A stretch of DNA of 64,000 nucleotides. It comes from Candidatus Aenigmatarchaeota archaeon (GTDB taxonomy: Archaea > Aenigmatarchaeota > Aenigmatarchaeia > GW2011-AR5). Below are positions 14,530-37,930 of this stretch, in pieces (position 1 is the stretch's first letter; each line of letters begins with the position of its first letter). The position numbers were made by a program, and so were the translations under genes. The stretch lies in contig JACQID010000004.1 in the NCBI GenBank assembly GCA_016198685.1, positions 64,001-128,000 on the forward strand, read 5' to 3'. The notes beneath the pieces were generated by a model, which saw only the letters and a list, made by a program, of their open reading frames with translations, was not told where the DNA came from and did not search any database.

Positions 14530-14624
14530 AATTATCATGCATATATTTCAATGACATCTTTCATCACCGCTTAACGTCAAGCCAGTCAAGAGGACAATTA
14601 TCATGCATATATTTCAATGACATC
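14530..14624. repeat. 29-bp perfect direct repeat flanking a 37-bp unique insert
   Basis: AATTATCATGCATATATTTCAATGACATC at 14530-14558 and 14596-14624. Confidence 0.95.
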
Positions 14625-15386
14625 CCCGTCATCTAATGTATAACCGAGTCCCACCTGCTTGTTCATCCCCTTCCGGCCAATTCTTGCAAAACGGAAATTC
14701 TTAATGAAATCCTTGTGTATAGCCTTTGCAGCGTCCCTTACTGTCGCACCTCTGGCCAATGACATTGGAGTCTTAGTCTTCTTCGTGTAAACCACTATTC
14801 TGCCCAATGCCTTCCATATTCTTTCTTTTACGCTGCTTGGCGTTTCTTCACGTGGATTGACAGTCAATGATTTTGTGCGTATATACTTGTCATCAAGCAT
14901 ACTGCGCAGCATTTTTTCTTCTTTCGGATTTTTTATTACAATAATAACAAGCTCGGCCGTTCTCGCTATGCTGACGTAGGCAGGTTCGAATGTTGAAGGT
15001 ATCTCGATAATCTGTATCTTGACCCCTTTCCAATCCATCATGCCTATCTCGGGCTTCACGGTCGTGTATTCATAAGGCGCGATTTCAGGCTTTGCGTCTG
15101 TGATGGCGGCCAAAAGCTGGGATTTGCCGGAATTTGTGTAACCGAGCAAGCATACTTGGGCGTCTCCTTCTTTTTGTATCCCTACTTTTGTCGTGCCCTT
15201 CTTTTCGCCCTCTTTCTTGAGCTTAGCCAGCCTCGATTTCAATTGCGCATGTGCGTTCTCGCTTCCATGATGACGCGGAAGAAGCGATATCATCTCTTCC
15301 AAAGCCGCTATCTTTTCTTCTCGGTTCTTGGCTTGTGCATACTTCATTTCCGCTTTATAATATTCCGCCGGAGGATTGACTGGCAT
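14601..15386 (-). CDS. DRG/OBG-family GTPase-like protein with TGS domain (shortened, degenerate G3/G4)
   Basis: MPVNPPAEY N-terminus, GYTNSGKS P-loop, YEYTT G2, C-terminal TGS (IHKDF...LDDGDVIEI). Confidence 0.85.
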   Translation of the reverse strand: MPVNPPAEYYKAEMKYAQAKNREEKIAALEEMISLLPRHHGSENAHAQLKSRLAKLKKEGEKKGTTKVGIQKEGDAQVCLLGYTNSGKSQLLAAITDAKPEIAPYEYTTVKPEIGMMDWKGVKIQIIEIPSTFEPAYVSIARTAELVIIVIKNPKEEKMLRSMLDDKYIRTKSLTVNPREETPSSVKERIWKALGRIVVYTKKTKTPMSLARGATVRDAAKAIHKDFIKNFRFARIGRKGMNKQVGLGYTLDDGDVIEIYA

Positions 15387-15648
15387 ATCTATAACTGCGA
15401 CTGAAGGGATAAATCCGTAAGCTTAGCACCCTGTATGCAGATACACAAAGGATGGCATGGCACCATTGTATCCTTGACAACTAAGCATCGGCAATAAGTT
15501 AAGGCGATAATTATGGCAAGATATGTATTTGTGCAAAATCGTAATATAAAAGGTGATTATACGCCTTTTGGCAAGATAGATTCTTTTTAAGGCAAAGAGT
15601 CGTTTTCTGAAACAGAAAGCTTTAAATATGCGTTATTACTAAAGAGTA

Positions 15649-16023
15649 GTGATATTAATGAGAAAAATGAAAGATATTGATGCTAAGATATGGGGCGGCA
15701 AGCATGATATACCTGATGCAGACTATGCTCTAAGGCATCTTCACGGCAATCAAATGGGCTTGCCTGCAATGGTTTACAATGAAAGAAAGATCGATCCAGA
15801 ATATGGGGGAGAGTATAATTTTGAACACTATAGGTCGTTATTTTTATCAGGGCTTAAACAAATTTTGGAATACGGAATGGAGGAGGCAGGTGATGTGACA
15901 TATGAACGCCTACTCAATATCGCCCATCTGGTGGCGTTGCCGGGAGCATGGGATGATCCTGAGAAATTCAGAGAAGCATATTATATGACTTCCAAGATCT
16001 TAGGGAAAAAGCCTATCTTCTAG
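15649..16023 (+). CDS. Hypothetical protein
   Basis: 124-aa ORF downstream of a TTTAAATA box. Confidence 0.5.
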   Translation: MILMRKMKDIDAKIWGGKHDIPDADYALRHLHGNQMGLPAMVYNERKIDPEYGGEYNFEHYRSLFLSGLKQILEYGMEEAGDVTYERLLNIAHLVALPGAWDDPEKFREAYYMTSKILGKKPIF

Positions 16024-16341
16024 ATCATGGAGAGAGAAAGGCTTTTCTAATAGCGAGACAGAAGGGTTTGCCTGCAAACCAATCGGGATGTTTGACTTGT
16101 TGCTATAGATTACTACAACATTTCTTGAAAATCCTCTGCCCACTGCTTTTGTCATTCTTTCGCCTGAACAATAATCAGCGTCAATAATAACGGTGCCGGC
16201 ATAGCCAGGCAGGTCGACGCCTCTCGGTTCATAGCCTGCATTATGGTCTCCATTTTGCAGTCGATATGCAATAATGTCTTGTATAGGTGATCTGCCCACA
16301 AGGAGGATATTTGCGAGTTGCATATGATAATCTGTATTCAA
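16000..16341 (-). CDS. Degenerate receiver (CheY-like) domain protein
   Basis: NILLV / VIIDAD / VVIYS / LLEKPFSLHDL occur in receiver-domain order and spacing. Confidence 0.5.
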   Translation of the reverse strand: MNTDYHMQLANILLVGRSPIQDIIAYRLQNGDHNAGYEPRGVDLPGYAGTVIIDADYCSGERMTKAVGRGFSRNVVVIYSNKSNIPIGLQANPSVSLLEKPFSLHDLEDRLFP

Positions 16342-16745
16342 AATATAAAAAGCATCAATGTATTAATTATAAGTATCAATAGCTTTCATGGTTACTGTTT
16401 TGGGAAGTCAATTTACGTTTGTACGGCACAGCCCAAAAATCTTTCAATTCATGATGACCACATATTTTCCTGAAGACATTCCGCGCAACAAGGCTTCGTA
16501 CATGAGCCACATTCTGTGCAATGGATTTTTGCCAATACTGAATCCGGAGATGGGTTATGTTGAAATAGGCACTCCCAGCTTAGAAGCAGGCTCGTAAGGC
16601 TTGCAAATGATGATTCTCTGCCGGATGACGGAATGACGGGGAGAGGATACTTGAATACGTAAGGTGTCTGGGAAACGTGAGTCCTCGTGATGAAGATGGG
16701 CTAAGAAATCTTTATGAGAAGGGCATAAACATGCAGAGGGAGAAT

Positions 16746-36048: not shown

Positions 36049-36058
36049 GCTCTCTTCC

Positions 36059-36736
36059 TCAAATATAATTTTCGAAATGTATTCGCTTCCGCTCGAACCC
36101 TATTTCTTCGAGAAGTTGCCTTACCTCTGTGACCATTTGCATTAGCCCGCATATATAGGCCTCTCCGTTTTTTTTGGCGTATTTTTTAACCGTGTCCTGT
36201 ACATGTCCTTTTTCGCCTTGCCATTCTTCCCGGCTTAAGACAGGAATGAAGCTCAACTTTATGGAGCCCGAAATTTTATTCATCTCGTCCTCATAAAGTA
36301 TCTCATTGCGTGTTCTTGCGCCAAAGATTACTGTAACGTGTCCTGCATAATGCCTTTTGACCATCTCAGGAAGCATGCTCATGAAAGGCGCTATGCCTGT
36401 TCCTGTGGCTATGAACATTATATCCTTGCCGGGTTCGTTGAGTGTAAATATTCCGAATGGCTGCGATATTTCCAGCTTTTGGCCCGGCCTCATGTTGCAG
36501 AGGAAATTGGACATGAAGCCGTTTTCCACACGTTTGATGCATAAGCGCAATTCCGGCTCATCCGGATGCGATGCCAGAGAATATGCCCTTTTGACTTTTT
36601 CTCCGTCCTTCTCAGCGAATACGTATATCCACTGGCCGGGCTTGAAAGGGATTTTTTCGTCTGGCACAAGAGAAATTATCTTGACGGTAGGCGAGGCGTT
36701 CTTTATTTCACGTACAGTTGCGAAACTTGTTTTCAT
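36059..36736 (-). CDS. FAD/NAD(P)-binding oxidoreductase (ferredoxin-NADP reductase-like)
   Basis: FKPGQW, RAYSLAS, GFMSNFL, ATGTGIAPF, YICG, HFENY. Confidence 0.9.
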   Translation of the reverse strand: MKTSFATVREIKNASPTVKIISLVPDEKIPFKPGQWIYVFAEKDGEKVKRAYSLASHPDEPELRLCIKRVENGFMSNFLCNMRPGQKLEISQPFGIFTLNEPGKDIMFIATGTGIAPFMSMLPEMVKRHYAGHVTVIFGARTRNEILYEDEMNKISGSIKLSFIPVLSREEWQGEKGHVQDTVKKYAKKNGEAYICGLMQMVTEVRQLLEEIGFERKRIHFENYI

Positions 36737-37101
36737 ATTATCCCCCACATAACTATGCCGAAGAGCGGCCATTGGCTTATTATCGTCGTTCAGATTATTG
36801 TCAAATCCATTACAAATAGTTTTCTCATTGACAACACTACTTTGACTGAGAATTACTATGTGTAAAGAACATTATTTATGTTCCGAAATTATTGTTCTCT
36901 GCCAAAGTTCAAAAAGAAACCCAAAATGGCTTTACGCACAAATCAACTATTAATAAATGAAAGAATACCATATGTACTGAAGGACATAGATAATCGGATC
37001 TTTAATGATGCCCCTCGCATGTCCAAAGGCGTTATTTGCGCGAAAAATAATGCATTTGAGTATAAAAAGGTGGTTCTACGGAGATAGATAACGTTAACCA
37101 G

Positions 37102-37782
37102 ATGGGTTATGATCAGGCCATAGTCGTCTTCTCGCCAGAAGGCAGAATGTATCAGGTCGAATACGCAAGAAAAGCCGTTGAGAGGTCCCCGACTCTTGTA
37201 GGCGTTGTATTTCAGAACGGAATCGTCATGGCTGCTACAAAAAGCCTAAGAAAGCTCATAGTGCCGGAAAGCATAGAAAAAATTTCCAAAGTTGACAGCC
37301 ACATAATAGCGGCTTCGTGCGGCATACTTTCCGATTCCAGAGTCCTTGTAGATTATGCCCGTGTCCGCAGTCAGGTGAACATGATAACATATGACCAGCC
37401 TATAGAAGTCACGACTCTGGTCAAGGATATTTCAGACAGGCTCCAGAAGTTCACGCAGGTAGGCGGCATGCGGCCATTTGGTGTTTCTCTGCTCATAGCA
37501 GGTCACGAGGACGGGTTTTATCATCTATTTGAGACAGATCCTTCCGGAGCCTTCAGAGAATGGAGAGCTCAGGCCATAGGTCGAGGCAGCAAGAAGGCCA
37601 AAAAATATCTTGTCGCCAATTACAAGAAGAAGATGACCAGGGAACAGGCTCTCACGCTTGCACTCAAATCTCTCAAGGAAGCCGAAGAAGAGCTTTCTCA
37701 GGAAACCGTGGAAATAGGTGTAATTGAGGATGGCAAGATATCCATAAACACGCCTGAACTTCTCGCTTCAATAAGGAAATGA
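37102..37782 (+). CDS. psmA: Proteasome subunit alpha
   Basis: YDQAIVVFSPEGRMYQVEYARKA, RPFGVSLLIAG, ETDPSG. Confidence 0.96.
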   Translation: MGYDQAIVVFSPEGRMYQVEYARKAVERSPTLVGVVFQNGIVMAATKSLRKLIVPESIEKISKVDSHIIAASCGILSDSRVLVDYARVRSQVNMITYDQPIEVTTLVKDISDRLQKFTQVGGMRPFGVSLLIAGHEDGFYHLFETDPSGAFREWRAQAIGRGSKKAKKYLVANYKKKMTREQALTLALKSLKEAEEELSQETVEIGVIEDGKISINTPELLASIRK

Positions 37783-37823
37783 AAGGATAACGTTTATTTT
37801 TTTGGCATGCTCATCAAGGGGCT

Positions 37824-37930
37824 GGCTACGGCGCATGTCACGAAATGTAATATGACATTTTTGTCCCTGGGAGCATACCGCACAGGGAAGAAGAGGCTAC
37901 GGCGCATGTCACGAAATGTAATATGACATT
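37824..37930. repeat. 36-bp perfect direct repeat (with internal ATGTCA/TGACAT palindrome) flanking a 35-bp unique insert
   Basis: GGCTACGGCGCATGTCACGAAATGTAATATGACATT at 37824-37859 and 37895-37930. Confidence 0.95.

Follow-up and report, generated by a model that had tools for sequence, protein, structure and literature searches.

Off-target spacer integration by a native type I-B CRISPR module as the probable origin of repeat-insert-repeat scars in a groundwater aenigmatarchaeon

The genome of an Aenigmatarchaeota archaeon from groundwater (0.93 Mb, metagenome-assembled; here G000) carries small scars in which a spacer-sized fragment lies between two copies of a local sequence. Their probable cause is ectopic, off-target integration of spacers by the cell's own Cas4-Cas1-Cas2 module of type I-B, a reading to which we give a probability of about 70%. 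Integration outside the CRISPR array has so far been shown mainly in Escherichia coli over-producing Cas1-Cas2 and in vitro, and wild genomes have provided little evidence of it. In the present case such events appear to be the work of a native archaeal system of type I-B, with between seven and ten of them in each 0.9 Mb genome of two sister populations.

What do the scars look like? Three of them lie in the window, the stretch of 64,000 nucleotides that was analysed (Table 1). The initial annotation had described exact repeats of 29, 43 and 36 nt around inserts of 37, 35 and 35 nt, and had called the three repeats mutually unrelated; both points are confirmed. Its placement of the scars at a gene 3' end, in a promoter region and between genes also agrees with the gene contexts, and all genes at the three loci are unbroken, as it had claimed. 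At locus 1, where the repeats extend to 33 nt if one mismatch is allowed, R1 supplies on the minus strand the ATG with which the next gene downstream (128 aa, 14152-14538) begins, and R2, on the same strand, the final codons and TGA stop of a DRG-like GTPase gene (14601-15386), so that the ATGA stop/start overlap of the two genes is duplicated. At locus 2, R1 follows immediately on the 3' side of a TATA-like box (about 19310-19319) and R2 ends 6 nt before the glutamyl-tRNA synthetase start codon (19450), the whole scar lying between the two. Locus 3 sits between the convergent proteasome-alpha and ABC-permease genes.

Table 1. Positions of the scars in G000 (loci 1 to 3 in window coordinates, the others by contig)
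Feature	Position	Strand	Length	Remark
Locus 1 target copy R1	14530..14558		29 nt	
Locus 1 insert	14559..14595	+	37 nt	TTT start
Locus 1 target copy R2	14596..14624		29 nt	
Locus 2 target copy R1	19323..19365		43 nt	exact repeat
Locus 2 insert	19366..19400	+	35 nt	TTTTT start
Locus 2 target copy R2	19401..19443		43 nt	exact repeat
Locus 3 target copy R1	37824..37859		36 nt	exact repeat
Locus 3 insert	37860..37894	+	35 nt	TTT start
Locus 3 target copy R2	37895..37930		36 nt	exact repeat
Further scar	C1:165611			same repeat-insert-repeat form
Further scar	C1:205404			same repeat-insert-repeat form
Further scar	C1:261612			same repeat-insert-repeat form
Further scar	C8:13731			same repeat-insert-repeat form

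Are these structures present in the living populations? The genome is a metagenome assembly, and it may share one project with the bin of its sister species (congener) G003 (0.79 Mb), so an assembly or binning artefact, with unmerged contig ends or strain bubbles posing as scars, has to be considered. Independent Logan contigs (k = 31) from four public groundwater runs (X1-X4) speak against it: the junctions of loci 1 and 2 are present in them, at roughly the depth of the flanks. The whole R1-insert-R2 unit of locus 1 is crossed by contigs in X2, X3 and X4. Run X1 differs: its contigs are interrupted at the edges of the repeats, and the unitig of the insert is half as deep as the flanks, which seems to be the pattern expected of an empty allele still segregating. 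For locus 2 each of the four runs has a unitig of 95-108 nt that links R1, insert and R2 and is about as deep as the flanks; in X3 the unitig of the 43-nt repeat is twice as deep. The inserts, moreover, reproduce distant genes exactly or nearly so and are not haplotype variants of the flanks, a possibility that the initial annotation had named as fatal to its reading. Misassembly, which it had considered the main alternative, is thereby effectively excluded, and we regard an artefact as having next to no likelihood. Empty sites are also available in the congener: the locus 1 and locus 2 segments each occur once in G003, which has, at locus 3, one diverged copy that lacks the insert. The relation is reciprocal, with single-copy sites in each species opposite the scars of the other. 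The scars are thus real DNA, and they are recent.

A scan of the whole genome found 7 scars in 0.93 Mb, the three above and four more; beyond these it picked up only one near-tandem repeat with a period of 48 nt and the CRISPR array itself. Exact direct repeats of 29-43 nt are not expected by chance in a genome of 0.93 Mb. G003 has 9-10 scars of its own in 0.79 Mb, at sites differing from those of G000, and both species together give the set of 16 described below. Its target duplications fall into two length classes, about 29 and about 36 bp (27-31 bp in six scars, 35-38 bp in nine, 43 bp in one). Each event adds about 66-75 nt, and the resulting small insertions have lengthened 5' leaders, separated overlapping genes and, once, added 25 amino acids in frame. 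No scar has grown past one unit.

All seven gaps between repeats in G000 measure 35-40 nt, and the same narrow range holds for the full set, close to that of the genome's own array spacers (inserts 35-40 nt, median 36.5, n = 16; spacers 35-41 nt, median 37, n = 19; Mann-Whitney p = 0.27). The inserts all differ in sequence. Where do they come from? Five of the 16 match genes of the same organism or of relatives at a distance from the scar, two of them exactly; among the G000 inserts three of seven match the own genome and a fourth a gene of the congener. The insert at C8:13768-13804 is identical to C1:76897-76933 (37/37), and one G003 insert to another G003 contig (35/35); in these two exact cases the ends are sharp, with no microhomology at either junction. 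The locus 3 insert matches the own cdc6/orc1 gene (C1:65710-65744) at 33 of 35 nt. The locus 2 insert matches an own gene (C3:102783-102814) at only 27 of 32 nt, so its donor was probably a homologue in a relative. The locus 1 insert found no source within its own genome and has about 87% identity to a PolB-like gene of the sister species (G003:C12:17838-17874). Two of the source homologues are no more than 11 kb away from cdc6/oriC. For most inserts no template was found in the genome; one insert, searched with up to 3 mismatches, had no match in 70 genomes of the order, two had none in metagenome_contigs and one none in genome_contigs, and a protospacer search with four array spacers and one insert against viral_contigs likewise returned nothing.

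The ends of the inserts and the sites that received them are both informative. A TTT start, the only motif common to the insert ends, occurs in 12 of the 16 (p about 4e-14) and in just 1 of the 19 spacers of the array, so that the inserts outside the array do not represent a random draw from normal acquisition. A source homologue is known for four of the TTT-type inserts, and in three of these the source is flanked by TTC, TTC (preceding the locus 1 source) or T-TCT (at the locus 3 source, a +1 slip of a TTC PAM), for which P = 0.0012 given the TTT start, one of the two TTC flanks being read in the G003 homologue that is about 87% identical to its insert. Over all source homologues TTC or its +1 slip stands beside 3 of 5, and one exact source has no TTC in its flank. 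TTC is thus a putative PAM, suggested by these flanks. On the target, the first base after the duplication on the TTT side is A or C in all 12 sites that can be oriented; this preference and the orientation of TTT suggest an oriented reaction. The target sites have no clear or convincing likeness to the leader-repeat junction, and their hairpin content is the same as that of random windows.

Is there an enzyme that could do this? The initial annotation had offered off-target spacer-type integration as one reading, and the genome contains a suitable module: cas4, cas1 and cas2 (C1:143717-145523, uninterrupted by stop codons) belong to one operon with Cas6, Cas7, Cas5 and Cas3, in which Cas1 is a Haloarcula-type Cas1b (484 bits; cas1_HMARI) and a 597-aa ORF of no assigned family occupies the place expected of cas8b. 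A type I-B array adjoins the operon, with 19 spacers (35-41 nt) and perfect 30-nt repeats. None of the 19 spacers matches the own genome, and the array repeat has no further copy elsewhere in G000 at up to 6 substitutions; a comparison of the array with 43 family genomes, for protospacers and related arrays, found only one degenerate lone repeat (in G002). We also considered the scars as CRISPR mini-arrays and rejected this, the seven G000 repeats being local sequence, mutually unrelated and unlike the array repeat. A second gene resembling cas1 (C2:18320-18718) amounts to a C-terminal fragment, lies where stop codons interrupt the sequence, and is hence unlikely to be a second integrase.

Three related genomes without this type I-B system, namely one congener with an empty cas island site and two other family members, have no clear scar in 1.16 Mb, where about 10.8 would be expected (P(0) = 2e-5). 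And what of the sister species, whose bin has no detected cas gene despite its 9-10 scars? Its contigs, at 99% identity, end exactly at the borders of the G000 cas island, which would account for the missing genes, and the beginning of cas6 is retained in another genome (G001); probably, then, the island is ancestral and simply escaped binning. G022, a genome with a different Cas1, has no clear scars in 378 kb, and this says little either way as its Cas1 is only 25% identical.

How would such a module make a scar? It would take up a piece of DNA some 37 bp long, as a rule beside a TTC motif, either from the cell's own replicating DNA or from DNA that arrives from close relatives. Each 3'-OH end of this piece would then attack an ordinary site in the chromosome, on opposite strands and at points 27-43 bp apart, where canonical integration would use both borders of the leader-proximal repeat, and gap filling would copy the stretch between the cuts, giving target copy, insert and target copy. 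In a genome that is nearly all coding, the survivors would be duplications that straddle a gene boundary or keep the reading frame. Direct repeats would make the loss of a scar easy, so presumably only young ones are seen. Both of these latter steps, selection and turnover, are put forward as plausible, and Cas1-Cas2 as the likely enzyme on the strength of sequence features. The proposal would also accommodate finding self-matching inserts and no self-matching array spacers, as expected if self spacers are tolerated only where no crRNA is expressed. Apart from Cas1-Cas2, we are aware of no integrase whose staggered cuts lie tens of bp from each other, and the six duplications of 27-31 bp come close to the length of the 30-bp repeat. 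Cas genes, insert length, insert origin, empty sites and independent contigs all support the initial proposal. Its reservation that the repeats fit a strict Cas1-Cas2 ruler poorly stands as well: duplications span 27-43 bp, and 10 of 16 measure 35-43 bp against an array repeat of 30 bp, which counts against the Cas reading. [quoted passage not shown]

Could something other than Cas1-Cas2 be at work? An undescribed process independent of Cas proteins, active in the genus and inserting fragments of about 36 nt with target duplications of 27-43 bp, is unlikely. In its favour, the sister bin has many scars and no cas gene, and array spacers lack the strong TTT start. Against it stand insert lengths that match those of the own array spacers and the TTC or slipped TTC beside three of four TTT-type sources; the congener with an empty cas island site and the two other family members have no clear scars, and the cas genes of the sister species are probably only missing from the bin. 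A version in which Cas-independent machinery pastes in fragments of about 36 nt with a preferred TTT start and duplicates about 30 or 36 bp of target we hold to be slightly less probable again. To our knowledge no enzyme of this kind is known. Template switching during replication or repair, of the MMBIR type, would have the nascent strand copy about 36 nt elsewhere and re-enter upstream, so that R is copied twice. It would suit inserts templated on distant genes, and source homologues near cdc6/oriC, but it is improbable given junctions free of microhomology in both exact-source cases, an insert length kept to 35-40 nt in 16 of 16, most inserts having no template in the genome, and insert ends that are oriented and T-rich next to a preferred target base.

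An insert between direct target duplications is also the general mark of transposition, and tiny transposable elements (MITEs) or casposon-like insertions could be invoked on that ground. Known IS and casposon target duplications are 2-15 bp long, and those seen here are 27-43 bp; the 16 inserts are 16 different sequences with no terminal inverted repeats, no multi-copy family or shared terminal motif was found among them, and the only second Cas1-like gene is the C-terminal fragment described above. This origin is accordingly far-fetched.

The scars are most likely a further case of the known off-target spacer integration (Nivala 2018). In the work of Nivala, Shipman and Church (Nat Microbiol 2018), over-produced Cas1-Cas2 of the E. 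coli type I-E system reportedly integrated non-canonically and gave rise to neo-CRISPR loci. In both cases a spacer-sized fragment lands outside the array and a repeat-sized piece of target is duplicated. Here, however, the populations are wild and the type I-B system, that of a DPANN archaeon, is native, with seven to ten events per genome of which none goes beyond one unit, duplications of 27-43 bp in two groups, a strong TTT start, and inserts drawn from own or related chromosomes.

Two archaeal systems can also be compared. In vitro, Cas1-Cas2 of Pyrococcus furiosus performs off-target full-site integration that keeps a spacing of 30-31 bp, at repeat-like sites (PMC6698737). On the Cas reading the scars would share with it an archaeal Cas1-Cas2, non-CRISPR sites and two coupled attacks on opposite strands; they differ in staggers that are mostly longer and in targets with no clear resemblance to the repeat. 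The I-B system of Haloarcula hispanica uses the PAM TTC, with +1 slips giving T-TCN (PMC5416893), and its acquisition from own DNA is rare and error-prone (PMC4872114, PMC5416893). [quoted passage not shown] The likeness covers the Cas1 subfamily (cas1_HMARI), the 30 bp repeat, similar spacer sizes and, tentatively, the TTC PAM with its T-TCN slips, but the cytosine bias at the third-last base, a trait of H. hispanica, is absent from the inserts.

If the Cas reading is true, CRISPR adaptation has a measurable mutational cost and is a source of small insertions, self-derived fragments are captured and persist only outside the array, and these natural events report how the integrase sets its stagger in the absence of a guiding repeat. 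The donors of the inserts also record DNA traffic among related DPANN archaea.

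What do the three repeat-insert-repeat loci of the window represent? Their direct repeats and inserts are exactly as the initial annotation gave them, and a scan of the whole genome under study (G000; 934,889 bases, 8 contigs, 45% G+C; the window is C6:64001-128000) adds four further loci of the same form, here called scars (target copy R1, insert, target copy R2). A mismatch-tolerant scan of this genome yielded no loci beyond these seven, and whole-genome scans found no decayed scar copies. Otherwise, repeats of such form are limited to the CRISPR array and a near-tandem repeat with a 48-nt period, whose unit recurs in several contigs of the congener G002 (L162, L166, L177, L196). 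Insert length, whose genome-wide distribution had been proposed as a check, is confined to 35-40 nt (35, 35, 36, 37, 37, 37 and 40 nt).

Scars and other features, on contigs (Cn) of G000 unless another genome is named
Feature	Position	Target (nt)	Insert (nt)	Source flank
Locus d (1)	window 14530-14624	29 (33 with one mismatch)	37	TTC (in G003 copy)
Locus e (2)	window 19323-19443	43	35	GGT (homologue only 84% identical)
Locus f (3)	window 37824-37930	36	35	T-TCT (both G000 and G003)
Locus a	C1:165611	36 (one indel)	37	
Locus b	C1:205404	31	36	
Locus c	C1:261612	35	40	
Locus g	C8:13731	37	37	TTC
48-nt-period repeat unit	C4:1472; C6:137195			
89-nt segment	window 18097-18185; 18785-18873			
cas operon, then array	C1:135040-145580			
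Genes between cas3 and cas4	C1:142237-143717 (L007:14237-15717)			
Second Cas1-like gene	C2:18320-18718 (L002:1198-1779)			
Lone CRISPR repeat copy	G002 C61:6512-6546 (L060:1501-1535)			
Blocks ~99% identical to G003	C1:106795-115145; 132868-134696; 151791-155372; smaller ones			
Source homologues at or near cdc6/orc1	C1:65581-66849; C1:76897-76933			
Possible hot spot	C1:254000-264000 (outside window); G003 L066			
G003 scars in hot spot	L066:9229; 11168; 18579			
ORF of scar c	C1:261547-262017 (L010:1947-2417), minus strand			

Are the scars real DNA? Local misassembly had been named as the main alternative, to be judged by reads across the junctions. Logan contigs (independent builds, k = 31) were aligned to window positions 14000-20000, which hold loci 1 and 2; the stretch is present in four public groundwater metagenome runs (X1-X4), all from one study. 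At locus 1, whose repeat is shorter than k, single contigs from X2, X3 and X4 cross R1, insert and R2 with no difference. In X1 the contig breaks exactly at the R1 end and the R2 start, and a 97-nt insert unitig has a depth of 58 versus ~121 for both flanks, a pattern that would arise if roughly half the population keeps the empty site (a single target copy, no insert). Locus 2, with a repeat longer than k, gives the expected pieces in all four runs, including a 95-108 nt unitig at about flank depth in which the insert and R2 follow the final 30 nt of R1; in X3 the 43-nt repeat unitig has double depth. The junctions of both loci are carried by independent contigs of the four runs; the scar finding is real, and misassembly is an unlikely origin. 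In all four runs contigs also break at 18130/18142 and 18818/18830, inside the two copies (94% identical) of an 89-nt segment shared by two adjacent minus-strand genes, one of which is Yip1-domain.

The sister species G003, scanned like G000 with ~95% covered, contains nine clear loci and one weaker, with targets of 27-38 nt and inserts of 35-39 nt. Control scans found no clear locus in G002 (382 kb), in the family member G007 (400 kb, 2 contigs, no Cas1) or in G022 (378 kb, Cas1 only 25% identical). At the G000/G003 rate ~10.8 loci would be expected in these controls (P(0) = 2e-5; with weak candidates counted, P(2 or fewer) = 0.0015). The two scarred genomes share a mean of 85% identity over aligned blocks, and the empty sites sought by the initial annotation are found there: loci d, e, b and g have a single target copy and no insert in G003, and locus f a single diverged copy. 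The stretches around a and c differ structurally and fall outside this comparison. Reciprocally, four clearly aligned G003 loci (h, k, n, p) have a single copy in G000, and the other G003 loci are consistent with this. Given these single copies in the other species, all 16 events appear lineage-specific and young.

Where do the inserts come from? The proposed search for their origin matched three to distant genes of the same genome: insert g copies C1:76897-76933, part of a 375-aa gene, at 37/37 nt, f matches cdc6/orc1 over 33/35 nt and e a gene on C3 over 27/32 nt. Insert d has no source in its own genome; a PolB-like gene in G003 shares ~87% identity with it, the G000 orthologue less. For inserts a, b and c the genus offers no source, and for a none was found across 70 genomes of the order. 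Among the G003 inserts, one copies a different G003 contig at 35/35 nt. As R1 still equals R2 at e and f although their inserts differ from the cell's own genes, the donors there were probably homologous DNA of related organisms. Several G000/G003 blocks at ~99% identity, versus the 85% average, suggest that exchange between the lineages is current; the blocks, two of which abut the cas island, point either to these species having recombined recently or to chimeric bins. Of the four source homologues in the own genome, two are at most 11 kb from cdc6/orc1, and one of these is inside it; this gene is presumably beside the replication origin, which suggests that origin-proximal DNA is sampled preferentially.

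The source flanks were read with inserts oriented TTT first. The candidate for a shared PAM, another proposed check, is TTC or its +1 slip, present in three of four (P = 0.0012, as TTC at -3 or -4 given a TTT start occurs at 6.8% of genome positions). The flanks of g, d and f match the rule of the related Haloarcula hispanica I-B system, whose PAM is TTC, with a +1 slip giving TCN with T before, and which acquires own DNA only rarely and with frequent errors (PMC5416893). The flanks of the exact-source G003 insert have no TTC. TTT(T) stands at one end of 12/16 inserts (p ~ 4e-14) versus 1/19 array spacers, and on the TTT side the first target base beyond the duplication is A nine times and C three times, which covers all 12 oriented sites. 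This bias points to an oriented enzymatic reaction, and is not a known rule.

The cas1, cas2 and cas4 genes looked for all lie in a type I-B operon beside the array, in the order cas6, an unassigned 597-aa ORF in the position expected of cas8b, cas7, cas5, cas3, two inserted genes (the first AbiEi-like), cas4, cas1 (cas1_HMARI, 484 bits) and cas2. Next come a leader and 19 perfect 30-nt repeats, ending in ATTGAAAT, with one further repeat that is degenerate. The 19 spacers measure 35-41 nt (median 37) and none matches the G000 genome. A second Cas1-like gene retains only the C-terminal part (model positions ~195-324) in a stretch with stop codons, and is apparently a remnant of a different system or of a casposon. 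No cas gene was found in the G003 bin; contigs C14 and C12 of that bin stop precisely at the two G000 island borders (C1:134696, C1:151791), at ~99.2-99.4% identity, and one contig of the more distant congener G001 ends 73 nt inside cas6, so the island is probably ancestral in the clade and lost from the bins. In G002 both flanks are joined on one contig and there is no island at that site; elsewhere this genome has one isolated CRISPR repeat, degenerate in sequence. As far as these comparisons reach, scars and island stay linked within the family.

Natural off-target integration by the Cas4-Cas1-Cas2 module is the best explanation of the scars (probability about 0.7). The initial annotation had suggested spacer-type integration, and this reading is now the best supported, by the cas module, sources, PAM-like flanks, empty sites and controls. 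The fragments used would be own or related chromosomal DNA, which in the array itself would be lethal or selected against. The main rival, a Cas-independent insertion process of unknown kind, is rather improbable: it would accommodate nine clear scars in a bin with no cas gene found and a TTT start that array spacers do not share, but the three control genomes have no clear scars. Template switching is unlikely, as the copied pieces have sharp ends and the two exact-source cases show no junction microhomology, and transposons are an unlikely origin too. A strict Cas1-Cas2 ruler was held to fit poorly, and it does: 10/16 duplications are 35-43 bp versus the 30-bp repeat (27-31 bp, n=6; 35-38 bp, n=9; 43 bp, n=1). 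Off-target sites of Pyrococcus in vitro keep 30-31 bp (PMC6698737), unlike the 27-43 bp here. Motifs within the repeat position the far cut in H. hispanica, and moving them shifts the duplication to 29-33 bp (PMC4872114); where a site lacks these motifs, other lengths could therefore result. The internal evidence for off-target integration is unusually good, drawing on insert sources, flanks that resemble a PAM, empty sites, a likely polymorphism and the controls. The TTT start and the split of the staggers into two classes are regularities that this reading does not account for. The kind of event is already known, here probably with a native archaeal type I-B system. It is reportedly described from E. 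coli over-expression work, wild cases being circumstantial.

All seven G000 loci are placed so that the duplication spares both neighbours, which bears out for d, e and f the claim that no gene is disrupted. The duplication holds an ATGA stop/start overlap at d, a stop codon with the next gene's start codon shortly after at a, and at g a pair of convergent stop codons separated by 12 nt; e falls in a 5' leader, b and f lie between genes, and c is an in-frame addition of 75 nt in a 156-aa ORF. In so dense a genome, gene-sparing placement at every locus implies that disruptive events are removed by selection. The scar-c ORF has no Pfam match and is missing from the corresponding syntenic position in G003 and in G001. 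Scar c also belongs, with three G003 scars, to a possible hot spot of ~10 kb that holds 4/16 events versus ~0.2 expected.
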